From NCBI GenBank assembly GCA_018580065.1, contig GCA_018580065.1_4845.1: a DNA stretch of 46,716 bases; one strand, written 5' to 3'. Made by a program: the position numbers and the translations under genes. This document shows, in pieces, positions 3,205 to 27,427 of this stretch. Source of the DNA: a phage. Positions within the stretch are counted from its first letter, which is position 1. Each line of letters opens with the position of its first letter. The notes beneath the pieces are model-generated. The model was not told the DNA's origin. It saw nothing but the letters and a program-made list of their open reading frames with translations, and searched no databases.

Positions 3205-3542
3205 GTCACCAGTGCGAAATCAGGTGGCTCAGCGCGATTGAACGTATTGCCATAATTAATCACATTCAGAATCTGATTTGCGCCAGCAACCAGCGGGTCA
3301 GCTTCTGTCACCGTGCCAATCATGATGTAGTCGCCAGTCTTAGCACCAACATACTCAGTCCAGAACGTATTCTTCTGCACAATCTCATTGCCTTTCGCAT
3401 CGGTAGATACATCATCGTTAAAACCATAATCGCACATGATGCTCACTGGCTCATCAAAAGTCGGCTTGCCGTACTTGTCGGTTCCGGTCTTGTGCCAGAT
3501 AGTGCATGGCTGCGTGTAAGAAAACCGAGAGATTGAGGTCAT
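3201..3542 (-). CDS. head closure / head-tail adaptor protein (putative)
   Basis: 113-aa ORF in the connector string. Assignment by position and size. Confidence 0.6.
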   Translation of the reverse strand: MTSISRFSYTQPCTIWHKTGTDKYGKPTFDEPVSIMCDYGFNDDVSTDAKGNEIVQKNTFWTEYVGAKTGDYIMIGTVTEADPLVAGANQILNVINYGNTFNRAEPPDFALVT

Positions 3543-4168
3543 AAAACATTCCTATATGAACGATTTTTCTTGATGTGCTGGATAGCACCTTTAGACACGC
3601 CAAACTCATCAGCAAGTGATTGTGAGTGCTCTCCATTTGCTAGTCTGGTTCTCACCTCCCTAACCTGATCATCAGTTAATTTAGCGTGTTTTGGAGTCCT
3701 GCCGAACATTGGGTTTTTCTCGCCAATTCTTGATTGCGATATTTTCTTTCTTGTTTCTTCTGTTTTTGGACCCATAGAGCAAGGTGGTGTTTTCCCATAC
3801 CAGCAGTTATTCTTTCCCATCCTGCTTTTGCTCATTTTAGCTTTAGCCACATCTGTTGCCTGAACCCCCAAGCACGTACCAGCTATTTTTGCCACATTAT
3901 ATTGAGGACTTAGCTTGTCTATGTAGAATTGCTCTCTACTAAGCAGGATTGATTCATCGTTAACAATTTCAAGAATTGAAAATCTGAATAATGACTCGCC
4001 ATATTTTGCTCCATCATTATACAACCTGTGTGGGCTGTGCATGCCATTCCTCATTTTGTATCGATGCACAGCAATTCTATTGGTGTAGCTTATTGTTGAA
4101 CCAACATAAATCTCTTTAGTTATTGTATTTTCAATCTGATATACAGCCATCACTCTCTTCATTTGCAC
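3539..4168 (-). CDS. GIY-YIG homing endonuclease
   Basis: N-terminal VYQIEN...IYVGST...R..H GIY-YIG motif, repeated NUMOD-like K/G-rich modules, C-terminal HTH. AT-rich insert between connector genes. Confidence 0.85.
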   Translation of the reverse strand: MQMKRVMAVYQIENTITKEIYVGSTISYTNRIAVHRYKMRNGMHSPHRLYNDGAKYGESLFRFSILEIVNDESILLSREQFYIDKLSPQYNVAKIAGTCLGVQATDVAKAKMSKSRMGKNNCWYGKTPPCSMGPKTEETRKKISQSRIGEKNPMFGRTPKHAKLTDDQVREVRTRLANGEHSQSLADEFGVSKGAIQHIKKNRSYRNVL

Positions 4169-4848: not shown

Positions 4849-5289
4849 TTATAGATTTGAATCAGCGAAAAAACAATGGCGACCACGCCAAGAATAATGT
4901 CCAATTTCGCCGCCCCATTTAAAAGTGATGGAAAGGATGAACAGATGGATGCCGATAATAATAAATGCGTACTGCACATGAAGCGGCGTTTCTACAGGCG
5001 TGATAAATTCCCATACGAATGACTCTATCGCAACCAGCCATTCGTAAAGGCTCATCGTCAGCACGCAAAGCGCCATCTTTGTACTTTTGCGCAGCGCAAT
5101 AGCCGGAAACAACCAGACCATAGACTGCGCAAGGTAATACAGATATTCGGCGGGAAATGAATCAACAAGCACCCATCCAAGATACACAGACATCACCATT
5201 GCCGGAATGAACACCAGAAACGCGAACATGCCTGTGCAGGCAAAACCCAGCACATACATGATCATGATGGTAACATCTGCGCCGAACAT
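4849..5289 (-). CDS. polytopic membrane protein (about 4 TM)
   Basis: 146-aa ORF with four long hydrophobic stretches. Start overlaps the upstream stop (TAATG). Confidence 0.6.
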   Translation of the reverse strand: MFGADVTIMIMYVLGFACTGMFAFLVFIPAMVMSVYLGWVLVDSFPAEYLYYLAQSMVWLFPAIALRKSTKMALCVLTMSLYEWLVAIESFVWEFITPVETPLHVQYAFIIIGIHLFILSITFKWGGEIGHYSWRGRHCFFADSNL

Positions 5290-5408
5290 TATTTTTTACC
5301 GCGTGATGGTGAGCGGGTGGAGCCGTTTGGTTTCACTGCGCCAGTTTTGCCGCCGGTTTTGGTGTTACCAGTAGCGCGTGAACGAGACGGACCGTTTGTT
5401 GAACCCAT
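5289..5408 (-). CDS. 39-aa highly basic, disordered peptide
   Basis: Hand translation MGSTNGPSRSRATGNTKTGGKTGAVKPNGSTRSPSRGKK. AGGAG RBS 7 nt upstream. TAATG coupling to the next gene. Confidence 0.5.
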   Translation of the reverse strand: MGSTNGPSRSRATGNTKTGGKTGAVKPNGSTRSPSRGKK

Positions 5409-5438
5409 GTTTAAATCTCCTGTTGTTTGATTAGCATG

Positions 5439-5447
5439 ATTTTAGCA
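5439..5447 (-). promoter_or_regulatory. late-type extended -10 promoter (TGCTAAAAT)
   Basis: Reverse complement ATGCTAAAAT, about 30 nt upstream of the ATG at 5408. Confidence 0.4.
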
Positions 5448-5455
5448 TATTCCTG

Positions 5456-5499
5456 TTGACGTAGATTGATGGTGTGTTTATAGTTAGTGACGTAGAAAC
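5456..5499 (+). promoter_or_regulatory. sigma70-like promoter TTGACG-17-TATAGT with two TGACGTAGA motifs
   Basis: TTGACG 5456-5461, TATAGT 5479-5484. Motif copies at 5457-5467 and 5488-5498, the second just downstream of the -10. Confidence 0.6.
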
Positions 5500-5524
5500 A
5501 ACAATAAATGTTAGAGGTGATGAA

Positions 5525-5785
5525 ATGTTTGATATTGATAACCCAAGTGATGACAAAGCCAAGCTGATTGATGCGGTCGCTTGCAGTTTCGCATCTTGCC
5601 AGACAGAAGGTGAATATCAGGTTGTGAAAATGTGCATTGTTGAGTTCTTCTCGGCAATCAACATTCCTGATGATGAGGCGGTTGATATTCTGCTGTGTGC
5701 CGCTGGGAGCTCCACTGAGGCGGACGAGTGCATTGATGAACTGGTTGAGGAGTTTGGCGGCATTTTCCAGGGTGATGAGGAGTAA
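5525..5785 (+). CDS. very acidic 86-aa early protein (DNA-mimic candidate)
   Basis: GAGGTGA RBS then ATG 5525. By hand count 22 D/E versus 3 K/R. First gene after the promoter. Confidence 0.7.
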   Translation: MFDIDNPSDDKAKLIDAVACSFASCQTEGEYQVVKMCIVEFFSAINIPDDEAVDILLCAAGSSTEADECIDELVEEFGGIFQGDEE

Positions 5786-5787: not shown

Positions 5788-5979
5788 ATGGCAAACATGT
5801 ACTACTGTATGTTCCGCAATACCGTGATTGATTTTCGTGATTGCGTTGATGCAATTGGTAATGCTGAGTCTATTGACGAGTTCAGCAATTCAGAACACAA
5901 GTCTGCCGAGCGCCTGTACCATCTGGCTAATGAGTACGTCGCATATTACGAGCAATTGTTAGAAGAAAGTGGTGAATGA
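5788..5979 (+). CDS. hypothetical acidic protein
   Basis: 63-aa ORF immediately following the previous gene. Confidence 0.6.
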   Translation: MANMYYCMFRNTVIDFRDCVDAIGNAESIDEFSNSEHKSAERLYHLANEYVAYYEQLLEESGE

Positions 5980-5980
5980 T

Positions 5981-6790
5981 ATGAAAACACTAAGCAAAAT
6001 CTATTCAGACAAAGAAACACGCAACGGCATCGCTGTTAACAAAACCTATCTCGTGCCAGTGGAGCAAATCTATCTGGAGCCGGGATATAACATCCGTGAA
6101 GCAGATGAGCAGCATGTTGAATATTTTGCGCAGTGCTGGGAGTCCGGCCAGCCATTACCAGCATTAACAGTTATTCCAGACGAGAAGGGAATCCGCATTC
6201 TTGATGGTCAGCATCGCTATCTCGGCGCATTGCGTGCCATTGAGCGCGGAGCACCAATCGTTCGAATTGAGTGCAAGGATTTCACTGGCGACGAGGCGGA
6301 CAAAATCGCCTTCATGGTGTCATCAAGTCAGGGTAAGCAGCTTGACCCGTTTGAGCGCGCAAAGGCTTACACGCGACTGAAAGGCTTCGGCTGGACGAAT
6401 GAAGAAATCGCAAAAAAGGTAGGGCGCTCAGTATCTGACGTGCAAATGCATCTGTCTCTTGGTGATGTTCCGGCGGAAGTAAAAGCGCGAATCAGCGCCG
6501 GGCAAATCAGCTATGCAAATGCCGTAGCAGTAACTCGTGAGCATGGTGACGATGCGGTAAAGGTTATCGACGAGGCGGTCGAGGAAGCCAAAGCGCAAGG
6601 TAAGGATAAGGTCACTGCGAAGGTGCTGAAGTCGAAAAAGATTAAGCCAGTAGACCGTCTGATTGAGTTATTGAAGCCAGCAGACCACGTGATTCTTCCT
6701 GCTGGTCATGTGGTGGCAGAGGATGAGGAATTTATCCAGATTCCTGTTGCTGACATTCACGAGGTTATGGCAATTCTGGAGAAGATGTGA
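5981..6790 (+). CDS. ParB-like N-terminal domain (ParB/Srx) protein with HTH
   Basis: YLEPGYNIRE and ILDGQHRYLGA motifs of the ParB N-terminal domain. WTNEEIAKKVGRSVSDV HTH. Confidence 0.8.
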   Translation: MKTLSKIYSDKETRNGIAVNKTYLVPVEQIYLEPGYNIREADEQHVEYFAQCWESGQPLPALTVIPDEKGIRILDGQHRYLGALRAIERGAPIVRIECKDFTGDEADKIAFMVSSSQGKQLDPFERAKAYTRLKGFGWTNEEIAKKVGRSVSDVQMHLSLGDVPAEVKARISAGQISYANAVAVTREHGDDAVKVIDEAVEEAKAQGKDKVTAKVLKSKKIKPVDRLIELLKPADHVILPAGHVVAEDEEFIQIPVADIHEVMAILEKM

Positions 6791-7281
6791 TGAACACAAC
6801 TAAAATAAATTGGGGTGATATTTTTCATTATGAAAATGGGGTGCTTAGGTGGAAGCACCAAAAAAGAAAAATGCTAAGTGGCTCTTTAGCTGGGACAATT
6901 GCAAATACAGGATATGTAATCATATGCGTTGATTACAAAAAATTCTTGGCTCACAGAATCATATGGGAGATGTTTAATGGACCAATCCCTGACGGGATGC
7001 AAATTGATCACATTAACCATATTCGTAATGATAACCGCATTGAAAACTTAAGGCTGGTAAGCCATATAGAGAACCATAGAAATCTTAGTAGGCAGAAAAA
7101 TAACAAATCAGGAAGAACTGGCGTTAGCTTTGACAGGAAGAGTGGGTTATGGAGGGCTTATGTATCAAAGATGCATATTGGTTTTTTTGCCAATAAAGAA
7201 GATGCAATATCCGCTAGAGAAAAAGCTGAAACTTCAACTGGGTATCACGAGAATCACGGAGTAAAAAGTGAACGTTTATGA
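6790..7281 (+). CDS. HNH homing endonuclease (HNH_3 plus AP2-like domain)
   Basis: LAHRIIWEMF...IDHINHIRNDNRIENLR...H..N motif, then GVSFD...WRAY AP2-like segment. AT-rich. Paralog of 17264-17749. Confidence 0.85.
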   Translation: MNTTKINWGDIFHYENGVLRWKHQKRKMLSGSLAGTIANTGYVIICVDYKKFLAHRIIWEMFNGPIPDGMQIDHINHIRNDNRIENLRLVSHIENHRNLSRQKNNKSGRTGVSFDRKSGLWRAYVSKMHIGFFANKEDAISAREKAETSTGYHENHGVKSERL

Positions 7282-7441
7282 TTTTCTCGTCAAGCAACTC
7301 CGCGCCAAGTTGCCTGACATTGACCAGATGGCAATTGATGCGGCGATTCAATATTACAAGCGCAATCAGAGCGCAAAGAAGGGTGGTATTTTTGAAGAAT
7401 GCCTGAAGGTTGCAAAACAGCACATGATTAAGGTGAAGTGA
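7268..7441 (+). CDS. hypothetical 57-aa protein (GTG start)
   Basis: Hand translation MNVYDFLVKQLRAKLPDIDQMAIDAAIQYYKRNQ... GGAG 7 nt upstream of the GTG. Stop overlaps the next ATG. Confidence 0.45.
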   Translation: MNVYDFLVKQLRAKLPDIDQMAIDAAIQYYKRNQSAKKGGIFEECLKVAKQHMIKVK

Positions 7442-7977
7442 TGAAACTAAAAATCAGCAAATTATTACTTGAGTCAGCATTAATATTTCAGGCGCGAAAC
7501 GATGTTCGCTACTACCTGAATGGCATCTGCTTCATGCCTGATGGTCGTATTGTCTCAACTGACGGTCATCGCGCATTCATTGGTGGCAGCCATGACAACA
7601 AGCTGACAGAGAATGTGATTATCAAGATGGTAAAGTCGCCAACAAAGCGATATGAATACGCCATAATTGATACCAAGTCGAAAATTGCAACGTATCATGA
7701 TGAAGCTGGCGTGATGGTTGGTACTGGTATCTGCGAAGAGATTGATGGTCGATTCCCTGATATTGATCGCGTCATTCCTAAGCAGACCTTGCCAACAGAG
7801 GAAATTGGCTTCAATGCTGGTTACCTTGTGGATATCGAGAAAGTGGCGAAGCTGTTTAACCCTAAATTCTGTGGGGTTAAGTTTGAACTGAATGGAAACA
7901 CAAATGCCGCAGTTTGCTGTCTTATCGCGCCATCTGGCGAGGCGGCGAAGATTGTTGTTATGCCTATGCGTCTGTAG
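7441..7977 (+). CDS. truncated DNA polymerase III beta-clamp (DnaN)-like protein
   Basis: Motifs VRYYLNG, STDGHR, DGRFPDIDRVIP, IGFNAGY and C-terminal VVMPMRL match E. coli DnaN domains II-III. Only 178 aa. Confidence 0.8.
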   Translation: MKLKISKLLLESALIFQARNDVRYYLNGICFMPDGRIVSTDGHRAFIGGSHDNKLTENVIIKMVKSPTKRYEYAIIDTKSKIATYHDEAGVMVGTGICEEIDGRFPDIDRVIPKQTLPTEEIGFNAGYLVDIEKVAKLFNPKFCGVKFELNGNTNAAVCCLIAPSGEAAKIVVMPMRL

Positions 7978-7981
7978 CAAT

Positions 7982-8010
7982 AAAAAACCCGCATAATGCG
8001 GGTTTTGTTT
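7982..8010. terminator. rho-independent terminator
   Basis: Stem ACCCGC/GCGGGT, loop ATAAT, flanked by an A-run and a T-run. Between convergent genes. Confidence 0.8.
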
Positions 8011-8206
8011 ACTCTGCTTTCTTTTTCTTTGTCGTCTTTTGTTGTGGTGTTGCGACTTCGAAAGACTTTTCCAGTTCTGGCATGATGCGCAATTTTGGTA
8101 GCAGATGCTCGTCTGGTTCGGTAATCACTTCGCCAAGCTGCAACTCACGAATCTTGCCTTTCTCTTTAACAAAGATTCCGCGTGCGATGACTTCGTATTT
8201 GGCCAT
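8009..8206 (-). CDS. hypothetical protein downstream of major capsid gene
   Basis: 65-aa ORF, GAGGTG RBS, lysine-rich C-terminus. Confidence 0.6.
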   Translation of the reverse strand: MAKYEVIARGIFVKEKGKIRELQLGEVITEPDEHLLPKLRIMPELEKSFEVATPQQKTTKKKKAE

Positions 8207-8224
8207 TATTCACCTCAAATTTAT

Positions 8225-8246
8225 AAAGGGGCTTTCGCCCCTTTTT
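8225..8246. terminator. stem-loop immediately after the capsid gene (attenuator/terminator)
   Basis: AAAGGGGC-TTTC-GCCCCTTT hairpin. The T-run is on the plus strand only, so termination on the minus strand is probably partial. Confidence 0.5.
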
Positions 8247-8247
8247 A

Positions 8248-9320
8248 TTACTGCGGAGTTTGCGTACCGTAGCCGTTAAATACTTTCGAACGACCAGCGA
8301 AATCCTTGCGTATCTGGATTCCGTAAGCAGACCATACCATAAAGTTAAAGTTATCGTGCGGGTTGACACGGGCTGCTGCGTAGGTGGAAACAGGCTGAGC
8401 AACACGCGGGCGGATGTACATGTCGTTGCGAACGTAGCCAACGAAATGGTTACCAGTCAGCAGGAAGTTGGTGCCAATCTTGCCGATGCGACCATTACCA
8501 AACTGCGTGATGTACTGCTCAACAGTGCCGCCTTTGAAACCTGCTGCATCAGAATACGGACGCATGAAGCTGCGACGCACTGCCGGGGAAACCCACAGGG
8601 TCACCTGCTCAAATACGTTCTGCGCATCCAGAATAGCCTGGAAATCCTGATTGAAGAAGGTCACGATTTCGTCTGGCGTTGCAGTTTGCAGGTCGATATT
8701 AAGGCCGCCGGAAGCATTCAGGTTAACCTGAACAGTGTTCGGGTGGTTGGTGATACCGTAACCAGTGTAAACGCCGTTCACGTTCAGAGTCTGGTCGCCA
8801 GTCAGCAGATACTGCGCCATGTCGGAACGCAGGTTGAAGGTGACGTTGGCCTGATCGTCCAGCAGTGGGTCGAAGCCTTCAGACTGCATACCCAGCAGTT
8901 CGCGCCATTCGCGGCTGTAGCCAGTCTTGAAGATTGGAATCACATCACCAGTGTAATCGTAGCGAGTTTTATCCAAATCTTCCGGTTCCTGACCAGACAG
9001 AGTGCGGACAACCTTGCCAGCATCGGAAGCAATGCGGCTGATTGCCACAGTCTTACCAATGTTGATGTTTGCCGCGATACCCATCAGGTCAGCCATCATG
9101 TCCTGACCAGCTTCATTGCGGAAAACTCGGGTGGTCACGTTATCCACGTCGCGCCAGTAATCTTTCGTTACCAGTGCGGTAGCGTTCACACCGTAAGTTT
9201 TCGCCAGTTCAGCTTCTGCATTGCAGAACACCTTACGGTCGATGGTGAGATGTTTCCACTGGTCAGCCACCACTGCGGAGTTGGCTACCAAATCTTTGGT
9301 AAAAATAATCTTTTCCATCA

Positions 9321-9321: not shown

Positions 9322-11200
<1,879 letters not shown>

Positions 11201-14613: not shown

Positions 14614-14921
14614 TGGCATTCTGCGACATCACCATCGCGCAACGAAACGCGAACTTTACCAACATTGCTGACACATCAGCGCAGCTGGTATCACTGAATA
14701 GCGACGGCAGTGCGGTGCTGAAAATCGGCACCGAAACAGCGCAATTCATTGTGCAGAATCTGTCACAGGCGAATGCAAAGCAGGTGCTGATTAGCACTGG
14801 CAGCGTGCTGTTTCTGGCTGGTAATTACAATGCGCCGAACCTTGAATGTTCACTGGTGCGCATCGTTGAAGCTGCGGTTGAGGAATCTGTTGATGAGCCA
14901 ACAACATTGCCAGCAGAGTGA
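14613..14921 (+). CDS. hypothetical protein
   Basis: 102-aa ORF, ATG overlapping the upstream stop. Confidence 0.6.
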   Translation: MAFCDITIAQRNANFTNIADTSAQLVSLNSDGSAVLKIGTETAQFIVQNLSQANAKQVLISTGSVLFLAGNYNAPNLECSLVRIVEAAVEESVDEPTTLPAE

Positions 14922-15048
14922 GCCACCAAAACCATCTGCATGGTGTGAGCAAATGGAACGCAATGCGAAGGATGGTGATGAGGCTTATACTTATTTCCAG
15001 CTGAAGCAAATGTGGAAGCAGAGAGAAAGTTCAGAGCAAGCCACTTAA
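14893..15048 (+). CDS. hypothetical 51-aa protein
   Basis: ATG 14893 after a GAGGA RBS. Followed by a terminator. Confidence 0.4.
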   Translation: MSQQHCQQSEPPKPSAWCEQMERNAKDGDEAYTYFQLKQMWKQRESSEQAT

Positions 15049-15053
15049 ACACA

Positions 15054-15076
15054 AGCCCCTTCACGGGGCTTTTTTA
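15054..15076. terminator. rho-independent terminator between convergent operons
   Basis: Stem GCCCC/GGGGC, loop TTCAC, T6 run. Confidence 0.8.
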
Positions 15077-15319
15077 TTGGAAGTTGTCACGATACCATCC
15101 CTGCCAATCGTAAATAGTCATCTTCCTTTTGGTAGCGCACTCCGTATTCTGGTTTTCTATAACAATGCTCTCATCGCTGTTTTTCGGTGCCACTTTCGAC
15201 AATTCGCACACCTCCCCCAACATTTCTGCTGACGGCTGAGTCTGCGTTGAGAGCTGATTGGCGCAACCGGATATAGTCATCATCAAAAGTGCAAACGGTA
15301 CGGTTCTGGTCGGAGACAT
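15074..15319 (-). CDS. o-spanin (Rz1-like outer membrane lipoprotein), overlapped architecture
   Basis: Lipobox LMMTISG-C after a hydrophobic leader. Starts inside the i-spanin gene in another frame and extends beyond it. Confidence 0.7.
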   Translation of the reverse strand: MSPTRTVPFALLMMTISGCANQLSTQTQPSAEMLGEVCELSKVAPKNSDESIVIENQNTECATKRKMTIYDWQGWYRDNFQ

Positions 15320-15560
15320 ATTTCACCACATCGCGATAAATGGTTTTGTATTTAGTTTCGGTCACCACGCGCACCTGTTGGGATTGCGCGGTTGACTTTG
15401 CCTGTTTGTTTTCTGCGTTCTGTTTGCGCTTGGCGGCATCAAGATTGACCTTATCACTATGAGCATACCATCCTTTCAGGTAGCCAGCGCCAAATAATAG
15501 CGAACCAATAGCAATGCCGGTCAATAGCAGAATTATAATTAATTTAACTTTTACCATCAT
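15171..15560 (-). CDS. i-spanin (Rz-like)
   Basis: N-terminal TM (LIIILLLTGIAIGSLLFGAG), then a charged coiled-coil periplasmic domain. Position after the holin. Confidence 0.75.
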   Translation of the reverse strand: MMVKVKLIIILLLTGIAIGSLLFGAGYLKGWYAHSDKVNLDAAKRKQNAENKQAKSTAQSQQVRVVTETKYKTIYRDVVKYVSDQNRTVCTFDDDYIRLRQSALNADSAVSRNVGGGVRIVESGTEKQR

Positions 15561-15780
15561 TGCGCAGCCTCCGGTTTTCCTTCCTCATGCCGTGCATCTT
15601 GCCGAGAATACCAACCAGCATGATTGAATAGCTCACACCTTTGACCACGATTGGCGGCAGCGCTGCTTTCAGGTCGTCCGGCATCATTACCCACACATGC
15701 ATCATTGCGTCAGGCCATAGTTGCAACAGTGAGCAGAACGAAATCCACGCGCCGAGCAGCCAGTTGCTTAGCTTTTTCAT
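15544..15780 (-). CDS. holin (two TM, class II-like)
   Basis: 78 aa, two hydrophobic segments, highly charged C-terminus RKENRRLRNDGKS. Adjacent to the endolysin. Confidence 0.75.
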   Translation of the reverse strand: MKKLSNWLLGAWISFCSLLQLWPDAMMHVWVMMPDDLKAALPPIVVKGVSYSIMLVGILGKMHGMRKENRRLRNDGKS

Positions 15781-16241
15781 GTCACAGCCCCGCCAGCATC
15801 CTTGTATACCTGAATCAGCTTATCCAGTTTCTGCTCATGCTGACCATAGCCAGCACCCGGCAATGAAGCCCAGCGGGAACGGCATTTATGGATGGCATCA
15901 GCAATGCGACCAGCCTCGATGTCGGTAGTGGCCTTGCATTCACGGATTAGCTGCATTGCAATGGCATCCTGTGATGCAGGAGAGAAGTCAGGCAGGCGCA
16001 GTTGCTTTTTGTATGCATCATAAAACTTAGCCAGCACCTGATAGCGCCCGGCGGCGGTGGATTTGATGCCCAGCCTAGGCAGACTAATCAGCTTGCGCGG
16101 GTGATCGGAATAGTCAGTAAACAGTGAGCCGCCAACGATCACATCATAACCATGATTATTGGTTTTCTGTCGCCCGTTATCAGTCCCCTCGCTGTACGCC
16201 AGCATATCCAGAAACGCCTTCATGTTTTTGCTAATAGCCAT
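15777..16241 (-). CDS. endolysin, lambda R-like lytic transglycosylase
   Basis: KAFLDMLAYSEGTDNGRQKTNNHGYDVIVGG.LFTDYSDHPR...AGRYQ...WASLPGAGYGQ closely parallels phage lambda R. Confidence 0.9.
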   Translation of the reverse strand: MAISKNMKAFLDMLAYSEGTDNGRQKTNNHGYDVIVGGSLFTDYSDHPRKLISLPRLGIKSTAAGRYQVLAKFYDAYKKQLRLPDFSPASQDAIAMQLIRECKATTDIEAGRIADAIHKCRSRWASLPGAGYGQHEQKLDKLIQVYKDAGGAVT

Positions 16242-16509
16242 ACCAGTAAACCTCTTTTTCAGCTTTGCGTTTTGCCTTATCACCAGTCTTCTCGCACCAC
16301 ACGATGAAATGCGCAACAGCACATGAGAAGCAGCGGAGATTGTGCTTCTTCAGAAGCGTTGATTTACGGAACACGTCAATGCCAATGTCAGTAGCAAGGC
16401 TCGTCAGCGCGTCGAACTGATTCTGTGTCGTCTTGGTAGTGATATAGGGCGATATATCTACGGCATCGGTGATTCCAAGGGTCTCTATGCCGCGTTGCGA
16501 TAGTTTCAT
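16231..16509 (-). CDS. GH24 (T4/P22-type) lysozyme-like remnant lacking the catalytic core
   Basis: QNQFDALTSLATDIGIDVFRKSTLLKK matches the GH24 helix region. The N-terminal E...D...T(IGYGH) catalytic segment is absent. 92 aa versus about 150 in intact enzymes. AGGAGG RBS retained. Confidence 0.55.
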   Translation of the reverse strand: MKLSQRGIETLGITDAVDISPYITTKTTQNQFDALTSLATDIGIDVFRKSTLLKKHNLRCFSCAVAHFIVWCEKTGDKAKRKAEKEVYWYGY

Positions 16510-16535
16510 CCTGCCTCCTGCTCAAATAATAACTA

Positions 16536-16544
16536 ATTCTATCA
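16536..16544 (-). promoter_or_regulatory. late-type extended -10 promoter (TGATAGAAT)
   Basis: Reverse complement GTGATAGAAT, about 27 nt upstream of the lysis cassette ATG (16509). Confidence 0.45.
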
Positions 16545-16553
16545 CAATGGCTA

Positions 16554-16593
16554 TTGACGTAGATTGAGCGGTGGTGCATAGTATCTACATCAA
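16554..16593 (+). promoter_or_regulatory. sigma70-like promoter TTGACG-17-CATAGT flanked by inverted motif copies
   Basis: TTGACGTAGAT (16554-16564) and ATCTACATCAA (16583-16593) form an inverted repeat bracketing the -10. Confidence 0.55.
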
Positions 16594-16614
16594 GTGATGA
16601 GTGAGGTGATGAAG

Positions 16615-16836
16615 ATGGAAATAAAACTTAACAAAGAAAGTAATATGCTAAGTCTTACCGGGCAGGGCGAGATGGTGTTCACAAGGCTAAAAAATGGAAA
16701 TGAAACCGCAATAACAATGATATGTGAAGGAGCGAAAACTTCTGTTTCAAATATGTATCTGGTCAATTTGAAAGAGAAAACAAGGGTTGGTAGATTTCTC
16801 TCTGCGCTGAAGCATGTGTGGATTCTTGCCAAATGA
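16615..16836 (+). CDS. hypothetical protein
   Basis: ATG 16615 lies 8 nt after GAGG. 73 aa. Confidence 0.6.
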   Translation: MEIKLNKESNMLSLTGQGEMVFTRLKNGNETAITMICEGAKTSVSNMYLVNLKEKTRVGRFLSALKHVWILAK

Positions 16837-16846
16837 AGGTGTAATT

Positions 16847-16990
16847 ATGGTAATGGTCAAATTCAAAGAAAACGGACGCTGCGGAGTGTTCGGTCTTGAA
16901 CAAATCAAAATCCGTCCGTGCGGTAAAGTGGTTGCACCATTTGGTCTGGTGCAGATGCGTGAATGTGAGATCGTGGAATATATTAAGTGA
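16847..16990 (+). CDS. hypothetical 47-aa protein
   Basis: Hand translation MVMVKFKENGRCGVFGLEQIKIRPCGKVV... AAGGTG RBS. Confidence 0.45.
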   Translation: MVMVKFKENGRCGVFGLEQIKIRPCGKVVAPFGLVQMRECEIVEYIK

Positions 16991-16998
16991 GGTTAGAA

Positions 16999-17277
16999 AT
17001 GACAAAACGCGAATTACACCAATTATTTAACAAATGGCTTGATTCTGTTGGTTTTGGCGACATGAATGATAGAGAGAAGGACTTGCTTTGGTTTGGGTTT
17101 TCTGTTGGATATTGCCACGACAATAACAAGACCATGCTCGCAGCACTCCAGCAGCTTCTGGAAATCTACGACGACCATTCAGGAAAAGCCTGGACAACAT
17201 CAAGCAAGCGTCGTGCTCTGGATAATGCGCGCGATGCGGTTAATAAAGCGCTGGGGGAGCGCAATGAAACAATGTGA
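16999..17277 (+). CDS. hypothetical protein
   Basis: 92 aa from MTKRELHQLF. GAGGT RBS. Confidence 0.65.
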   Translation: MTKRELHQLFNKWLDSVGFGDMNDREKDLLWFGFSVGYCHDNNKTMLAALQQLLEIYDDHSGKAWTTSSKRRALDNARDAVNKALGERNETM

Positions 17278-17749
17278 TCTTTTCCGTGTTCTTAGTTATA
17301 ACCCTGAATCTGGTGAATTCACGTGGATTAAATCAAGAAGACATGGGTTTAGCGGTCGAAAGGCTGGGTCGGTAAATGGGAAAGGGTACATACAGATCTG
17401 CATTGATGGAAAGCTTTATCTTGCGCACAGGCTTGCTCTTCTATACGTGACAGGAGAGATGCCAAAGGAGGTGGATCATATTAACAGGGTGAGAGATGAC
17501 AATAGATTATGCAACTTAAGGCCATGCACTTCATCTGAAAATAAGCACAACAAGGATATCACATCCAGAAACAAAACAGGGATGAAGGGCGTCAGCTGGT
17601 ATCCTGCCGGAAATTCATGGCGAGTAAGGATATGCGTAAATAAAACACAGATTCATCTGGGCTACTACGAAGACATTGAGCTGGCAGAGCTTGTGTCGCA
17701 AGAGGCGAGAATTAAATACGCAGGAGATTTTAATTATGAAGCTTATTGA
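17264..17749 (+). CDS. HNH homing endonuclease (HNH_3 plus AP2-like domain)
   Basis: LAHRLALLYVTGEMPKEVDHINRVRDDNRLCNLR...N motif plus GVSWY...WRVRI AP2-like segment. Paralog of 6790-7281. Confidence 0.85.
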   Translation: MKQCDLFRVLSYNPESGEFTWIKSRRHGFSGRKAGSVNGKGYIQICIDGKLYLAHRLALLYVTGEMPKEVDHINRVRDDNRLCNLRPCTSSENKHNKDITSRNKTGMKGVSWYPAGNSWRVRICVNKTQIHLGYYEDIELAELVSQEARIKYAGDFNYEAY

Positions 17750-18371
17750 TTTACTGGTTAAAGAATTACCTAAGCGTGGCGGGTGGCCTGAGGGTGCCGT
17801 TGAGTGTCAACGATTTGTTGATGAGGCAACCATTGATTTTTACGATGAAAATGGCAACTGGGATGATGACTGCTCACTTACTTACGGCTCGATAGCGGTG
17901 GAACTCGTCAGAAAGCAGACGTACCCTTGCGAGAGCGAGCAAGTAACTCGCAAGCAATACGAATCCGCACTTGCAGCATCTCAAAAGCCAGCATGGAACG
18001 GCGAAGGTCTTCCGCCAGTTGGTGAGAAAGTTGAGTTCTTCATTAATCCAAAACTCGGATACAGAAACGCCTGGAATCCTGATGCTGGCACTGAAATGGA
18101 AGTGGTTGCACACAAGACAACAACGGATGGCAATAATGTGGCAGTTTGTTATTGGGATGAGCGCGGCGCAGGAAGGTCACACTGCTTCGTACCAGAAAGC
18201 CTAAAACCACCACGCTCAGAAGCAGAGCGCAAGCGTCATGAGGCAGCAGAATCCATTGACTTTTATATGCCGGAATTTATTACCGATACGCCAAATGAGT
18301 TTTACCACGCCAAAAAGATTTACGACGCCATCGCGGCAGGTAAGATTCCCGGCGTGAAACTGGAGGATTGA
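17736..18371 (+). CDS. hypothetical protein
   Basis: 211 aa. CAGGAG RBS 9 nt upstream. Confidence 0.7.
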   Translation: MKLIDLLVKELPKRGGWPEGAVECQRFVDEATIDFYDENGNWDDDCSLTYGSIAVELVRKQTYPCESEQVTRKQYESALAASQKPAWNGEGLPPVGEKVEFFINPKLGYRNAWNPDAGTEMEVVAHKTTTDGNNVAVCYWDERGAGRSHCFVPESLKPPRSEAERKRHEAAESIDFYMPEFITDTPNEFYHAKKIYDAIAAGKIPGVKLED

Positions 18372-18372
18372 T

Positions 18373-18501
18373 ATGTGGTTATTCCCGTTTCTTCTCGGTA
18401 TTGCGTGGTTTGTGATGTATATGTTTGGTGGTAATGATTTCGACGTGGTGATTGCAAATATATGGATGGCGACTAGCTTCATGCTTGCTAACAATAAATA
18501 A
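18373..18501 (+). CDS. 42-aa membrane peptide
   Basis: Hand translation MWLFPFLLGIAWFVMYMFGG... Starts 2 nt after the upstream stop. Followed by a terminator. Confidence 0.45.
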   Translation: MWLFPFLLGIAWFVMYMFGGNDFDVVIANIWMATSFMLANNK

Positions 18502-18505
18502 AACC

Positions 18506-18530
18506 AAGCCCTCACTTAGAGGGCTTTTTG
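18506..18530. terminator. rho-independent terminator between convergent genes
   Basis: Stem GCCCTC/GAGGGC, loop ACTTA, T5 run. Confidence 0.8.
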
Positions 18531-19433
18531 TTATTGCTCTGGTTTTCCTCCGAGCTTTCTAATAATTTCTGCAGCAACGCACGGATCAACATTAAAAAAT
18601 TCAGTCGCCCCATCGAAACCTGACAACCCAGCATTTAAGTCCTTTAGCTTTCTATGCGCAGCGCCTTCCGCTTTCCTTGCTTTGTAATAGCTTTCGAATG
18701 AGAACTGACACAACAAAGATATAGAAAGACCTGATTTTTTAGTTAGTTGCTGAATCCTTAGAGGAACGTTATTTGATAACCCTATCTTTATCATTCCATT
18801 TGCTTCCAACAAATAAACCATAGTCTTTTTGAATGGGTTTCTTCCTGCGCATTTTGCACACCCGTGCCCCTTGGCGTGATGGCCAGCAAACTGGCGAAAA
18901 CTGCCATGAATAGGGCATATTATTTCAACCATGCTATTCATGCCACTAAAAACTACCTCATCATATGAATATTTCCCGCCATGGGCCTCTTTGCATCTTG
19001 CTATGAAGGATTCTGTATCCATGCCGCCCTTTCCACTGCAAACCCTGCACCCAATATTCCCTCTCAAGTGATCTCTTGCTATTTGCTGGAATTCACCATG
19101 TTTTTTGCACCTTATGGTTATCATTGACAGCATTCCAGAGTATTTGGTTGGTGAATAATCATAAATATCATGGTTTTTACTGGGAATCATATCCATAAAC
19201 TCATCATGACTGTACCCGTTATGCATTCCCCTGCCGGGCCTGCACTTTCTGCATCCGTTGCAACCGTTGAGGTGATCATTTGGCGTCTGTTTAAATAACA
19301 CATCATGCTTAATACATCTGATTATTACTGGCGATTTCCTTTTGATGTATTTAGTTTCTGAATAGTCAAATTTATCGCCGTGGATTAACTTAGCGCGTGA
19401 AATGAAATCTTCTGTGGTAGGTCTTTTTGCCAT
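18531..19433 (-). CDS. T5orf172-domain putative homing endonuclease with three tandem zinc-ribbon repeats
   Basis: Three ~58-aa repeats (F...A...HG.KYDYS...I.C..HG.F.Q....HL.G.GC..C), then the C-terminal VYLLEANGMIKIGLSNN...EFF T5orf172-like domain. AT-rich. Own promoter. Confidence 0.75.
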   Translation of the reverse strand: MAKRPTTEDFISRAKLIHGDKFDYSETKYIKRKSPVIIRCIKHDVLFKQTPNDHLNGCNGCRKCRPGRGMHNGYSHDEFMDMIPSKNHDIYDYSPTKYSGMLSMITIRCKKHGEFQQIARDHLRGNIGCRVCSGKGGMDTESFIARCKEAHGGKYSYDEVVFSGMNSMVEIICPIHGSFRQFAGHHAKGHGCAKCAGRNPFKKTMVYLLEANGMIKIGLSNNVPLRIQQLTKKSGLSISLLCQFSFESYYKARKAEGAAHRKLKDLNAGLSGFDGATEFFNVDPCVAAEIIRKLGGKPEQ

Positions 19434-19522
19434 TATTAACCCCGTAGCAGGTTCGTAGATTGAGGATTGCAGCAGGGTGTCTACGTTCACCTTTTCGTCT
19501 GGCCGGACTAGCTGCAATTGAG

Positions 19523-19531
19523 ATTATATCA
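19523..19531 (-). promoter_or_regulatory. late-type extended -10 promoter (TGATATAAT)
   Basis: Reverse complement AGTGATATAAT, overlapping the stop of the MuF-like gene, upstream of 19433. Confidence 0.4.
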
Positions 19532-20485
19532 CTTTGCCTTGTGAGCTGAAAGCCACTTATCTCTCGCTGATATCATCCTGTCAAGAGAAGATTCAAGCAT
19601 GATCACATTACCATTTTCATCTAATAGGCATGGCGTTTGACCACAATGGCACCGAAATCTATTTCCGTCCTTGCTGTAAAACTCCTCCACCTGTTCTGGC
19701 GAGTACGCCTTAGAGTGTCTGATGGCGTGAGTTTGTCTGGTTGTTGGTAATAGCGCCGACACCCAAAATAGGGCACTATTTAGCCCCAAAATAATCTTTG
19801 ATTCCTGAACTTCGTCAGACTGCGACTTGCGTAAAATGCCCGTAAGCTCGGTTTGGGCAATGTTTTTTGCTCGCGATTCACTTACACCAACGCGCTTAAT
19901 GATGTCTGATTCAATATCTCTCGGATTAGAACCAACAGCGATAGCATTCATGATCACCTGAGACAAATCATTACGTGCCGCGTCTCCAATTCCAACCCAA
20001 TCGCTGTAAGTGGAGGCATTGGCAATAGACAGGCGCTGCAAATATGGCTCAGAGTAAATAATGTCTGCAATTGAACGGCGCTCAGCATAGAGTGGAGACA
20101 TGGCTGCCAGTTGCTGTTGCGCCTCAACCGTACCAGCTGAATAGGCGTCAGAGACATAAATTGACATCCAGAACTGACCAGCATCCATTGGCTGAGTATC
20201 ATCAAGCAGTATTTCATCAATTAGCTGTTGCAGCGCCTCATTAAATTGAGCTGCCCTAGCGGCTGAAAAATCATACCTGTAACCATAGGCATCAATGGAG
20301 TTAATTGCGGCAACTGGAATTGACCTGAATAAGTCTATGACTGACGATTTAAGGCGCTTGTATCGCGCCTCAATCTGTTTGTTTGCCTTGCTTAGTCTCC
20401 TGTTAGCGCCAACAGGGTCTGTTTTGCTGGTTGGTATCTTCGGGCCAACCAGTCTGGCGCTAACCTTAAAGATTTTGATTTTCAT
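19529..20485 (-). CDS. head morphogenesis protein (SPP1 gp7 / Mu F-like)
   Basis: 318 aa from MKIKIFKV. Position immediately after the portal. Family-like C-terminal R.H...RCHCG region. Confidence 0.7.
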
Positions 20486-21869
20486 CGTCAGGATTACCCT
20501 CTGTGACGATCTGAATTTCTTCAATCGGCTCCATGCCAACCATGCCGCGAGCCTCATCGACAGTTAACAGCGCAGACTGACCAGCATCAAAGAATGACTT
20601 GTTCGCAGTGGCCAGTTTGGCTAGCAACTCCGCTTTATCCAGTTCCGATGGTGCCAGCAGGTCATCCCACTTAACTTTGTAGCCATTTTCTGGTGCTTTA
20701 TCGACAATGCCGAACTGAATCATGCGCTCAACAAACATTGAAATGACATAATCAACCCATGTTTCGCGGCGTTGTTTGGCGGTCATCGCCTCCTGCATCT
20801 TGTCTTCATCGCTTGCAAGGCGCCCTGTCTGCTGCCCGAAAATGACGGTGAACGGAAGCGCCATAGATGCAGCGAACTGGTTGGCAGCAACTTCCCATGT
20901 TGGTTTCGGATCGGCTGGCGCCACAGCGAGAACCTTTGCGTCAGCGCCCATTGTGAACATGGCGGCGTCGATGCCTGAGTTCAGCGCCTCAATGTTCTCA
21001 TTCATGATGTCGGTGAGTTCTTCGATGTCGACACCCATCGACTGAGCGAGACTTGCTGGTGTTACATTATCCTCCGTATAGTTAACAGCCAGTTGGCGGC
21101 TTGCATTCTTCAGGAATCCTTCTGCGGAGCTACCGGAAACCTTAGCCATGTCGATAAGGCTGTTGTAGCCAGCACGCAACATCGGGACGCCACTGAACAT
21201 GCTGCCGTCAAAGCTCCCCTCCGCCAGAATAATGATGCGGTCAGGGTGAATCTGCACGGAACGCTCAGGCTTGCCGTCGCTGTCGAAGTCTTCCACGGCG
21301 CTTTCCTGATATTCGTACATCTCAGGCATTCCGTAGTCTTCGCTGGTTTCGTCGTTATTCCACGCACTGACTTTGAGCTGCTCCTCCCATACCGGAATAA
21401 AGCGGACGATGGATTTATCTTTAATGCGGCGTGTTTTTGTGATGTCTACCGGTTCACTCCATTGCTTACCATCGCGGATTTGCAGGATGACGGCGGAATA
21501 GCGGTTGATGGCGTTGCGCTTGTCGGCCTCCTTGATGAACGGATAGGCACGCTTCATCATGCCGTTGATGGACAGTTCCCACGACGTAGAGTTCTTGTCA
21601 TCCTCGCCATCTTCGACCACCTCTGGGTACTTCTGCCAGCATTTATTAATAATGCGGTTAATGCCAGCTGCGGCGGCAGGATGTCGCTCGTAGGCGTAGC
21701 GGAACATCTCAGCGGTGATTTCCTGCGGGTAGCCGCATTCCGTCCAGAGTCTGTCGTGCTTCTGGTCAAGATTCTTCCCACCAGCACAAAGCCGTTGCTG
21801 CTGAATAGCCCGGTTATTGTTCGCCACGCGGTCGCGTATGTAGGCGTTTAAAGCATCAATTTTGGACAT
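20466..21869 (-). CDS. portal protein
   Basis: 467-aa ORF between the terminase region and the MuF-like gene. Size and acidic C-terminus typical of portals. Confidence 0.8.
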
Positions 21870-21880
21870 ATGTCACCAAT

Positions 21881-21905
21881 AAAAAAACCCATCACGTTGG
21901 ATGGG
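21881..21905 (-). terminator. rho-independent terminator upstream of portal gene
   Basis: On the minus strand: CCCATC-CAACGT-GATGGG followed by T7. Confidence 0.7.
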
Positions 21906-21914
21906 ATTATAGCA
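21906..21914 (-). promoter_or_regulatory. late-type extended -10 promoter (TGCTATAAT) abutting the terminator hairpin
   Basis: Reverse complement ATGCTATAAT. The predicted start site falls inside the hairpin at 21905-21888. Confidence 0.45.
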
Positions 21915-21919
21915 TGGTA

Positions 21920-22126
21920 TCAATAGTCGAAGGCTCGCCTGTGCATCGTGGCGTTACTGTGATGGAATACAACATTTTCCATCCTATCCCCTAGCACCAA
22001 CCCTCTGCATTTTGCGTAAATCTGATACTGCTTATTATTGAATTTATCATGACTATCAAACCAGATGCCCTCAAACCTTTTTCTAAGTTCAACAGCCATC
22101 TCGTGAAGATGTTTTCTGTCCATCAC
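21920..22126 (-). CDS. hypothetical protein
   Basis: 68-aa ORF, coupled to the upstream gene. Confidence 0.55.
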   Translation of the reverse strand: MMDRKHLHEMAVELRKRFEGIWFDSHDKFNNKQYQIYAKCRGLVLGDRMENVVFHHSNATMHRRAFDY

Positions 22127-22308
22127 TCCACCTTTTCCAGTTTATCAATGATAACGTCGTAGCCCTTTATTTCGTACTTTGCAACCAATTCGCAACCCAA
22201 AAACCAATCGAACGCTTCATTGGCGTTAGATGTCGTGGCTGTCGCGCAAACCTTGGTAACAACTTCACCACCATCAAGCACTTCAGCATGAATAAAATAA
22301 ACGCTCAT
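22123..22308 (-). CDS. hypothetical protein
   Basis: 61 aa from the ATG at 22308. TGATG overlap with the upstream ORF. Confidence 0.55.
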   Translation of the reverse strand: MSVYFIHAEVLDGGEVVTKVCATATTSNANEAFDWFLGCELVAKYEIKGYDVIIDKLEKVE

Positions 22309-22478
22309 CACTCAATCTCCTCACCATCAACCCAGCGTTGCAGGACTTCGATTAGCTGCATGGCTTGGTGTTTGTCAATAATAATAGCGTTATGACCCTG
22401 AGTAATCATTGGATTAAACTTGAAATCAACAGCTATTGTGCACATTGGCGTTTTTGTTTCGTCTTCAATAACAATCAT
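22308..22478 (-). CDS. hypothetical 56-aa protein
   Basis: Hand translation MIVIEDETKTPMCTIAVDFKFNPMITQGHNAIIID... Confidence 0.45.
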   Translation of the reverse strand: MIVIEDETKTPMCTIAVDFKFNPMITQGHNAIIIDKHQAMQLIEVLQRWVDGEEIE

Positions 22479-22487
22479 CACATCACC

Positions 22488-22895
22488 TCAACAAAGCTCA
22501 CCATCAGTTATCATCAATAACTTCTGCCATTTAGCTACCGGCTTGCACAACTCAGACTTCAACCTGCTTAACGAGCCTGTAATATCAGACCATTCGGCAA
22601 ACGGAACGAATCGCACAAACCGGTAGTCAGCTCCAGCCCAGTGCCAGCCAAGCGTGTAGTCGATGTATGTGCCGTCTGACTGCATGTTTATGTAATGTGC
22701 AGTCACAGACTTATCATCAATCACCACAACCTCAACCACTGCGCACGAACTTCCGTCACGCGCCCTGTTCACTGCATTCAGATGACAGGCGTGATTGTAC
22801 AGGCCAGTACCATCAATGAATGATATATCAATCTTTTTGGTGTATTTCTTATCCGCAGCGTCGCGGATTATTTTCTTTAATTTATCCCTGAACAT
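22488..22895 (-). CDS. hypothetical protein
   Basis: 135 aa from MFRDKLKKIIRD. Confidence 0.6.
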   Translation of the reverse strand: MFRDKLKKIIRDAADKKYTKKIDISFIDGTGLYNHACHLNAVNRARDGSSCAVVEVVVIDDKSVTAHYINMQSDGTYIDYTLGWHWAGADYRFVRFVPFAEWSDITGSLSRLKSELCKPVAKWQKLLMITDGELC

Positions 22896-23085
22896 GATTA
22901 ATCCACCATGCGGCAATGGCTGAGAAAATCCACAATCCGATAACAAGTCTGAAAACCTGCCAGTTTAGAATGTCATCAATGCTTGGTGCTTCCCATCTAA
23001 TCAACCAGATAAGCGGAAAAGCAATCGCTAGTGCAATGGTGTACTTAATACCAATAAACAGAAAATCTCTCACAAAATCTCTCAT
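22882..23085 (-). CDS. membrane protein (two TM)
   Basis: 67 aa with two hydrophobic segments. Confidence 0.6.
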   Translation of the reverse strand: MRDFVRDFLFIGIKYTIALAIAFPLIWLIRWEAPSIDDILNWQVFRLVIGLWIFSAIAAWWINHVQG

Positions 23086-23100
23086 ATCACCCTCTCAAAA

Positions 23101-23298
23101 TCAGTTAACCATATAGTAAATATCATCACGAGCAAACTCGTCAGCATCCTCCTGGCATTCAATTGCAACATCCTCATCGTAATATGATGCTAACTGCCGC
23201 GCCGTAGCTCTGCGTTTTTTCTTGCTATTGCGCATATCTCTGAACACGCACAGTTCTTTATCATAAGCCCGGACCATTCTTTTCATTATGCTTTTCAT
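23101..23298 (-). CDS. hypothetical protein, basic N-terminus and acidic C-terminus
   Basis: 65-aa ORF. Confidence 0.55.
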   Translation of the reverse strand: MKSIMKRMVRAYDKELCVFRDMRNSKKKRRATARQLASYYDEDVAIECQEDADEFARDDIYYMVN

Positions 23299-23302
23299 GT
23301 TT

Positions 23303-23509
23303 TCACCCTCTCAAAAAATCATTCTTGCAGCAGATACCTTTATATCCGCGCTTCTCTTGCAGGTTAACGAAAACATCATCAATAACACGCAGCAGAAAAT
23401 CCTCGTCAATATCATACCGACGACAAATCACATCATCAGGAACACCAGCTCGTGCCAGGGAATAAACCTGCTCTTTTTCCTCCTGTGTGAATCCTGCATA
23501 GCTGCGCAT
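23303..23509 (-). CDS. hypothetical protein, possible HTH
   Basis: 68 aa from MRSYAGFTQEEKEQVYSLARAGVPDDVICRRY. GGAG RBS. First gene of the leftward operon. Confidence 0.55.
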   Translation of the reverse strand: MRSYAGFTQEEKEQVYSLARAGVPDDVICRRYDIDEDFLLRVIDDVFVNLQEKRGYKGICCKNDFLRG

Positions 23510-23529
23510 AGTGATATCTCCGATAAACC

Positions 23530-23636
23530 TGATGTAGATTATACTATGCGCTCGGTGTAGATTGGTCAAGTGTGGTGATGCAGATTTATCAACAACAATA
23601 ATAAATGTTGACGTAGATATGTTGGTGACGTAGAAT
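23530..23636. promoter_or_regulatory. divergent control region with five direct copies of the TGAYGTAGAWW motif
   Basis: Copies at 23530, 23553, 23576, 23609 and 23626. Leftward TTGACC-17-TAGTAT (23569..23541) and rightward TTGACG-17-TAGAAT (23608-23636). Confidence 0.6.
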
Positions 23637-23670
23637 CATCTTATCGAAAAGAGATTAAGGAACAAGAGAA

Positions 23671-23826: not shown

Positions 23827-23830
23827 TTAC

Positions 23831-24028: not shown

Positions 24029-24054
24029 GCCCTCGATTGAGGGCTTTATTTTTA
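24027..24054. terminator. rho-independent terminator between convergent genes
   Basis: Stem AAGCCCTC/GAGGGCTT, loop GATT, T-rich tail. Confidence 0.8.
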
Positions 24055-27205: not shown

Positions 27206-27241
27206 ATCATCACCATTAAAAATAAGAATGCTGAATCGTGT

Positions 27242-27424: not shown

Positions 27425-27427
27425 TTG

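Follow-up and report, generated by a model that had tools for sequence, protein, structure and literature searches.

A short open reading frame (ORF) on the plus strand of a 46,716-nucleotide phage sequence (GenBank assembly GCA_018580065.1, contig GCA_018580065.1_4845.1; hereafter the window, i.e. the whole stretch of DNA that was analysed) was found to encode a shortened homologue of the bacterial beta sliding clamp DnaN, here called the mini-clamp (PHROG 3007). The gene occupies positions 7441-7977 (+) and specifies 178 amino acids plus the stop. It begins with an ATG at 7441, ends with a TAG at 7975-7977, and is intact over its 178 codons, and a Shine-Dalgarno sequence (AAGGTG, 7430-7435) is located 5 nt upstream of the ATG. 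It is the last gene of an operon that runs from a promoter-like site through an anti-restriction-like gene, a ParB-like gene, an HNH endonuclease gene and a 57-aa ORF to the clamp gene and a terminator. In bacteria, replication and repair both centre on the beta clamp as a hub, and the clamp's protein-binding pocket is an antibiotic target. The observations on this gene and its relatives show that the mini-clamp is a selected, widespread, non-canonical clamp derivative and not a gene remnant.

A preliminary description of this DNA, made from the sequence alone, had proposed a truncated beta-clamp homologue at 7441-7977; the ORF lies exactly there, and its homology to DnaN is far beyond chance. 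When the product was compared with PDB sequences using phmmer, enterobacterial beta clamps were matched with E = 2e-13 to 7e-12. When a family profile built from 130 short relatives was aligned with E. coli DnaN using hhalign, the probability was 99.6% (E = 2.9e-24), and the alignment covered DnaN residues 127-366, up to the C-terminus, with a single gap at about 254-312 (ca. 58 residues). This agrees with the anatomy described earlier, in which the protein extends from the beginning of domain II to the true C-terminus, lacking domain I and the initial half of domain III. All five motif pairs given in its support are real, namely VRYYLNG, STDGHRA versus ATDGHRL, DGRFPDIDRVIP versus DGRFPDYRRVLP, IGFNAGYLVD versus IGFNVSYVLD, and the terminal VVMPMRL.

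As judged from these alignments, the mini-clamp is DnaN domain II joined to the second half of domain III. Residues 1-101 (7441-7743, +) are the equivalent of domain II (DnaN about 127-237) and contribute the pocket residues R23, L26, T40, G42, H43 and R44. Residues 102-121 (7744-7803, +) comprise the DGRFPDIDRVIP connector, which bears the pocket residues P106, R110 and V111, and then the deletion junction, placed by the hhalign gap and the motif spacing, at which DnaN about 254-312 is missing. Residues 122-178 (7804-7974, +) correspond, in the alignments and in the AlphaFold (AF2) model, to the second half of domain III (DnaN 317-366); they make up one beta-alpha-beta-beta-beta unit with the VVMPMRL end and supply the pocket residues N125, Y128, V172, M174, P175, M176 and R177. 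In searches with curated models, the product scored 32.1 bits with TIGR00663 (cut-off, 137.65) and 16.7 with PF02767 (cut-off, 27), and PF00712 and PF02768 gave no match in the Pfam scan. With 178 aa that correspond only to DnaN 127-253 and 313-366, it is not a three-domain chain of ca. 366 aa scoring above the curated DnaN cut-offs.

The pocket that receives clamp-binding motifs (subsites I and II) is retained in the mini-clamp at the level of sequence. Pocket subsites and the dimer interface were defined as published (PMC11139829). Of 19 published pocket positions, V344 was unmappable, and 17 of the remaining 18 were identical to E. coli beta, the sole change being L177 to A45; all pocket residues named in the preliminary description were present. 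The interface residues I78, R103 and F106 of domain I and I272, L273, E298 and E304 of the first half of domain III all fall within the deleted segments. With neither domain I nor the interface half of domain III, the protein cannot close the canonical head-to-tail ring, and the earlier statement that the protein is unable to form the normal head-to-tail dimer thus holds for every published interface residue.

The fold was examined in two AF2 runs. Their alignments were shallow because the searches gave only relatives of at least 56% identity, the profile searches for distant members having returned the window's own subfamily. The first run (34 sequences) gave a predicted local distance difference test score (pLDDT) of 70.6 and a predicted template modelling score (pTM) of 0.55, with a poor C-terminal part. 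The second run (134 sequences) gave a pLDDT of 72.9 and a pTM of 0.72, with values below 50 only at residues 105-123 of the connector region and the last three residues. The pLDDT was about 63-93 in the domain II part (residues 1-101) and, in the second model, 63-82 for most of residues 122-178, and the connector (102-121) was the low-confidence region in both models. Foldseek searches with the models returned sliding clamps exclusively. The herpesvirus factors UL42 and UL44 were weaker structural neighbours of the model, and the model superposed with real beta clamps over 142-150 of the 178 residues. The mini-clamp therefore has the DNA clamp fold of beta-alpha-beta-beta-beta repeats in these models, and the Foldseek comparison, which the preliminary description had suggested as a check, recovered it. 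Each model contained just two helices, at residues 7-15 and 126-139; where DnaN has the second channel-lining helix of its domain II (about 197-208), a short loop (residues 64-72) is predicted instead.

The short family also differs from bacterial clamps in its charge. The median isoelectric point (pI) of its members was 8.25, and 67% of them were above 7, the corresponding region of E. coli beta having a pI of 5.57 and the full-length matches one of 4.8-4.9. Lysine or arginine occurred in 50-80% of members on the first helix, at R19 next to the Q149 DNA loop, at R70 in the loop replacing the lost helix, and at K134, K137 and K142 on and after the retained domain III helix. In the herpesviruses, UL42 (a monomer) and UL44 (a dimer) are non-ring, positively charged factors of the clamp fold that bind DNA directly (PMC9690074). 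The single-stranded portion of a primed template is a further ligand that the beta pocket can accept.

A search run exhaustively over 1.84 billion representatives gave 2130 matches; among the best 150 of these 2130 representatives (50% identity), 130 were 150-225 aa in size and 2 were full-length clamps. The carriers included at least 508 IMG/VR viral contigs and at least 283 GenBank phage records. The spacing from P106 to Y128 was 22 residues in the window and had a median of 23 (21-26) in the family, as compared with 81 in E. coli beta, and the chain ended 4 residues past the MP motif in the family, the same as in beta. In the 130 representatives, which were 27-50% identical to the query, the mean frequency of the top residue was 0.75 in the pocket columns versus 0.36 elsewhere. 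Eighteen positions were conserved in at least 80% of these representatives, and 11 of them belonged to the pocket or a pocket motif (R23, Y25, L26, T40, G42, H43, P106, Y128, M174, P175 and R177). The ratio of nonsynonymous to synonymous substitution rates (dN/dS) of the clamp gene relative to Shigella phage DS8 was 0.11, indicating purifying selection. A scan of genome contigs for the host taxa of prophage-borne mini-clamps gave one short-type match (Trabulsiella), the results being swamped by chromosomal dnaN of Betaproteobacteria.

The clamp proteins of the window phage and DS8 differ by 17 amino-acid replacements, whereas the flanking ParB-like protein and the small ORF differ by 2 and 1, respectively. 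Among the replacements in the clamp are R104I, within the DGRFPD motif, V111A, which affects a pocket position, and a cluster at 115-119 in the connector; a looser constraint, or adaptation of the clamp to other host clients, may account for them.

The operon begins with a sigma-70-type promoter-like site at 5456-5484 (+; TTGACG, 17 nt, TATAGT), for which 10 of 12 consensus matches are the only support. The first gene is the anti-restriction-like gene at 5474-5785 (+; PHROG 14587, E = 2e-43), and this match suggests that the whole clamp operon is an early host-takeover unit. It is followed by the gene for a ParB-helix-turn-helix (HTH)/KorB-like DNA-binding protein at 5969-6790 (+; Pfam PF17762 and PF08535), which is 99% identical in DS8 and is the ParB-like neighbour that had been noted earlier in a plus-strand island; it lies in the same operon as the clamp gene. 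The HNH endonuclease gene at 6787-7281 (+; PF13392) is probably a mobile insertion of the homing-endonuclease type. It is missing from many close relatives, in which matches span only 80% of the 6500-9000 query, and it is one of four HNH/homing-endonuclease-like ORFs in the window (3539-4168, −; 6787-7281, +; 17066-17749, +; 18531-19517, −). The 57-aa ORF at 7268-7441 (+; PHROG 4439) has a TGA stop that overlaps the clamp ATG (TGATG). Downstream of the clamp gene, a strong bidirectional intrinsic terminator (7984-8006) separates it from the convergent capsid operon and is shared by both; the hairpin energy was −17.2 kcal/mol (z = −4.4 against shuffles).

In the clade to which the window belongs (ca. 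45 loci), the order of ParB, variable insert, small ORF and clamp is constant, and these genes face the capsid genes. The 57-aa ORF is the constant upstream neighbour in these loci, lying 3 nt before the clamp match in ca. 36 of them and up to ca. 220 nt before it in the rest, and its dN/dS of 0.017 relative to DS8 indicates very strong purifying selection. Outside the clade, the Eta-like, Dhillonvirus, Bcep781 and lambdoid carriers lack it. The 57-aa protein could be a clade-specific partner of the clamp.

The window's relatives at about 93% nucleotide identity are Shigella phage DS8 (Deseoctovirus) and Salmonella phages LPST10, BS5 and Akira, and the BASEL phages Bas77-81. DS8 has a 90% identical mini-clamp within a ParB/HNH/capsid block that is 95-99% identical. 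The replication module of the window (29-38 kb) encodes a Prim-Pol/PriCT-2/DUF3987 primase-helicase (29240-31573), a Sak4-like ATPase, Gp157, a DUF669 single-stranded DNA-binding protein (SSB), and a superfamily 2 (SF2) helicase, while that of DS8 encodes a DnaG-type primase, a DnaB-type helicase, Erf, ExoVIII and an SSB of the oligonucleotide/oligosaccharide-binding (OB) fold. The Prim-Pol, Sak4, Gp157 and DUF669 SSB of the window gave no tblastn match in DS8. Since DS8 keeps the clamp with a different replication module, the clamp is independent of the Prim-Pol. The suggestion in the preliminary description that the mini-clamp bridges host polymerase to the phage Prim-Pol is thus contradicted and was abandoned. 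Between the two phages, which are otherwise about 93% identical, the whole replication and recombination module is swapped (27000-38000 in the window; 14900-24100 in DS8), and only a distant SF2 helicase (26% identity) is shared.

No dedicated DNA polymerase was found among all window ORFs of at least 450 aa. The earlier remark that the phage encodes no DNA polymerase of its own was therefore right for the window phage, but it fails as a rule for the family, since Bcep781 and the Dhillonvirus TheodorHerzl encode a DNA polymerase I (Pol I) of their own in addition to the mini-clamp. In these two phages, the mini-clamp gene (5007-5525 in the TheodorHerzl locus; 10433-11014 in that of Bcep781) is a lone opposite-strand gene in the head-morphogenesis cluster, between the portal/MuF-like minor capsid genes and the scaffold/major capsid genes. 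A location beside capsid genes thus recurs in two unrelated groups of virulent phages and in the window, where the clamp gene abuts the capsid operon.

Forty loci with clamps less than 67% identical to that of the window were sampled for their gene contexts, and 31 of the 40 were lambdoid, having a divergent cI (HTH plus S24 peptidase), cII, the mini-clamp, Phage_rep_O or another initiator, and a DnaB helicase or a DnaC/IstB-like loader. Phages of the lambda type replicate with the host DNA polymerase III (Pol III) holoenzyme. The lambdoid loci are among those numbered L054-L083 (IMG/VR), for example L066 (8619-12996) and L073 (8575-14213); in L073, the DnaB-type helicase has a LAGLIDADG-like insert and the O protein has a T5orf172 domain. 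Across the family, the mini-clamp gene sits among early or replication genes and is not tied to any one phage replisome.

Phage-encoded ligands for the pocket were sought by motif. A strict QLxLF-type clamp-binding motif was found in none of the window ORFs; one relaxed hexamer, inside the HTH of the ParB-like protein, was at chance level. The Pol I proteins of TheodorHerzl and Bcep781 had no clamp-binding motif, and such motifs were not enriched in the neighbouring initiators and helicases (22 kb-equivalents). Host rather than phage clients are favoured because near-identical clamps occur with unrelated replication modules, the window ORFs and the Pol I proteins have no motif, and none is enriched in the neighbours.

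Based on these results, it was hypothesised, with a probability of roughly one-half, that the mini-clamp is a functional non-ring derivative of beta that acts as an adaptor or tether diverting host clamp-binding proteins, as described below. The retained segments are exactly those that build the hydrophobic pocket for QLxLF-type clamp-binding motifs. Its gene is transcribed together with genes of an early or host-takeover type in the window phage and, in most of the family, stands first in a lambdoid replication module. The pocket would capture host clients such as Pol III alpha and epsilon, the clamp-loader subunit delta, Hda, Pol I, II, IV and V, ligase, and MutS/MutL, and the captured clients would be drawn away from the host chromosome. 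In the favoured mode, the mini-clamp would serve as a loader-independent tether, a client being held on phage DNA by the basic, helix-bearing face in the manner of UL42 and UL44. Binding to host proteins with clamp-binding motifs is what the pocket sequence would predict, and we infer likewise its peptide binding, the identity of the clients, DNA binding and the oligomeric state. Conservation of the pocket supports peptide binding, and the sequestering or redirecting of host clamp-binding proteins that had been suggested earlier appears plausible on the same grounds. The tethering or redirecting role is favoured because of the charge shift, the position in replication modules, and the reliance on host Pol III seen in most of the carriers sampled; the lambdoid phages, the window phage and DS8 have no polymerase and depend on this enzyme wholly. 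More tentatively, the loader-independent pocket module, carried by phages of many lineages, may either hijack Pol III and other clamp clients onto phage DNA or serve as a decoy soaking up clamp-directed host factors, among which there might be toxins that target the clamp, from abortive-infection or toxin-antitoxin systems.

Several observations weigh against this hypothesis. The AF2 model is of moderate quality only (pLDDT, 73), and it is weakest in the connector, where three pocket residues are located. Beta contacts DNA directly through residues that include Q15, G23, R24, R73, R80 and the Q149 loop; most of these residues (Q15, G23, R24, R73 and R80) are in the deleted domain I, and only the Q149 loop is kept. 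The proposed DNA-binding tether is accordingly argued mainly from the charge shift, and one channel helix is predicted to be lost. The clamp gene is also the least constrained of the operon, with a dN/dS relative to DS8 of 0.11 as compared with 0.007 for ParB, 0.017 for the small ORF and 0.049 for the capsid protein. E. coli prophages have homologous cII-initiator-DnaB modules without the mini-clamp, the match being about 557 bp shorter, and the mini-clamp is therefore an accessory insertion and not a core part of the replisome. Besides, indiscriminate sequestration would be self-defeating for a phage that relies on host Pol III.

The alternative that comes next, close behind the tether, is that the mini-clamp is purely a decoy or inhibitor, a soluble pocket that titrates clamp clients (delta, Pol III alpha, Hda, and mismatch-repair and translesion factors) with no DNA tether, so that host replication and repair are shut down or re-programmed. 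The identity and conservation of the pocket fit this alternative as well as they fit the tether. The loader subunit delta binds monomeric beta about 50-fold tighter than the dimer (PMC11139829), the accessory presence and absence of the gene is typical of host-takeover genes, the clamp gene is co-transcribed with an anti-restriction gene, and carriers with their own Pol I would be spared by a shut-off of Pol III. However, the window phage, DS8 and the lambdoid carriers, which have no polymerase, need the host Pol III holoenzyme including clamp loading, and a free decoy leaves the basic shift and the conserved lysines on the retained helices unexplained; we consider a pure decoy less likely than the tether. 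A new kind of ring or arc is less probable still. The clamp fold has an internal pseudo-two-fold symmetry, and with three half-domains per protomer, four protomers or two-fold pairs could rebuild a ring of 12 half-domains or a C-shaped processivity clamp. In favour of such an assembly are this symmetry, the normally covered surface exposed by the lone half-domain, the low AF2 confidence for the C-terminal unit of the monomer, which is as expected if a partner is needed, the precedent of UL44, a viral clamp that forms a C-shaped dimer, and the two-domain form beta* of E. coli, which is reported to be active as a clamp. The deletions remove all known ring-closing residues, though, one of the three expected channel helices is predicted to be lost, no phage clamp loader is present, and the gene is dispensable in related replication modules, all of which make such an assembly improbable.

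The mini-clamp might instead be an adaptor for a phage protein with a non-canonical motif, such as the 57-aa protein, the ParB-like protein, a replication initiator or a late-transcription factor (cf. T4 gp45 and Mu MuC). The pairing with the small ORF, which is constant within the clade of the window, the adjacency of ParB in the window and in Serratia phage Eta and of initiators in the lambdoids, and the clamp-dependent late transcription documented for T4 and Mu speak for it. Against these stand the facts that no neighbour is conserved family-wide, the small ORF and ParB being missing in Dhillonvirus, Bcep781 and the lambdoids, that clamp-binding motifs are not enriched in the neighbours, and that a pocket near-identical to that of the host points to host-type ligands; we therefore give a phage partner little credence and rank it after the ring. 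A functionless, decaying fragment of a captured host dnaN, or a RusA-like resolvase, is effectively excluded. The former is what the annotation of the Bcep781 protein as a fragment implies and is in line with the assumption of a 2011 survey that such homologues are dispensable, and the latter is the label of PHROG 3007. A pseudogene or remnant is ruled out by an architecture that is the same, true N- and C-termini included, in over 130 clusters at 50% identity, by the conservation of the pocket and by the dN/dS of 0.11. As for a resolvase, the product has the clamp fold with structural matches that are all clamps, no RusA Pfam match was obtained, and Bcep781 has a separate Rus gene, gp22.

The non-ring pocket protein proposed here can be set beside several known systems. 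It shares with the bacterial beta clamp (DnaN; PF00712/PF02767/PF02768, TIGR00663) the fold, a near-identical pocket and the VVMPMRL tail; it differs in having 178 rather than about 366 aa, in being basic rather than acidic, and in the predicted absence of one channel helix. UL42 and UL44 would be analogous in combining a clamp fold with basic charge and absent ring elements, DNA and polymerase binding being only proposed for the mini-clamp, but they show no detectable sequence relationship to it, consist of two full domains and serve the virus's own polymerase. E. coli reportedly makes beta*, a short form of DnaN of about 26 kDa from an internal start, which is said to be an active oligomeric clamp. 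Like the phage protein, beta* would be a natural clamp without domain I, its start lying at around M135 of DnaN, and K7 of the phage protein aligns with K136; beta* is said to keep the whole of domain III, whereas the phage protein has lost half of it together with the interface. Gp168 of Staphylococcus phage Twort (PDB 7evp, the complex of Gp168 with the beta clamp) is likewise a phage strategy aimed at the host clamp hub, but proteins of this type are small binders of the host clamp, while the mini-clamp is a phage copy of the clamp's docking site.

If the hypothesis is true, a widespread phage protein reproduces the pocket alone, without ring and without loader, and would open a new route by which host replisome components are competed for, redirected or neutralised. 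It would then represent a new class of host-replisome takeover factor, either a bacterial-virus counterpart of UL42 or a decoy, and would mimic, in a natural and monomeric form, a site that antibiotics target. The mini-clamp could also serve ligand screening as a small, soluble and possibly monomeric surrogate of the pocket.

The homology of the mini-clamp to beta was already present in databases and in one survey, and the preliminary description had missed both the existing annotation as a beta-clamp fragment and the catalogue of 2011. GenBank depositors named the gene 'DNA polymerase III beta subunit', 'beta clamp domain protein' (DS8) or 'putative beta-clamp protein' (Serratia phage Eta), and gp15 of Bcep781 is annotated as 'DNA Pol III b subunit fragment'; the Bcep781, Eta and DS8 proteins belong to the same family, with 33-90% identity and the same length class. 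The survey of Kazlauskas & Venclovas (2011; PMC3201878) listed 'shorter' phage polIII-beta homologues, described as 'second and third domains', and set them aside, horizontally acquired phage clamps being taken as probably dispensable. These 'shorter' homologues appear to be of the same kind as the mini-clamp. The GenBank entries and the survey recorded only the homology and did not mention the precise loss of half a domain, the conserved pocket, the change in charge or the genomic contexts; what is new here is the pocket-only reading, the size and uniformity of the family, the charge shift and the gene contexts. In the literature, we found no functional study of short phage clamps. Pfam, NCBIfam and PADLOC have no model for the short form, and the clamp gave no PADLOC match that would relate it to a defence system. 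The profile of PHROG 3007 matches the clamp product over its full length (E = 5.9e-63) and is labelled 'RusA-like Holliday junction resolvase'; this label, which has been carried into RefSeq and into Pharokka-annotated phage genomes, is an annotation error, and the mis-annotation propagated into RefSeq via PHROG 3007 is hereby corrected. RefSeq records with the RusA-like name include NC_054650, NC_054645-47, NC_054651 and others, and the RefSeq record of DS8 pairs this name with a beta-clamp note.

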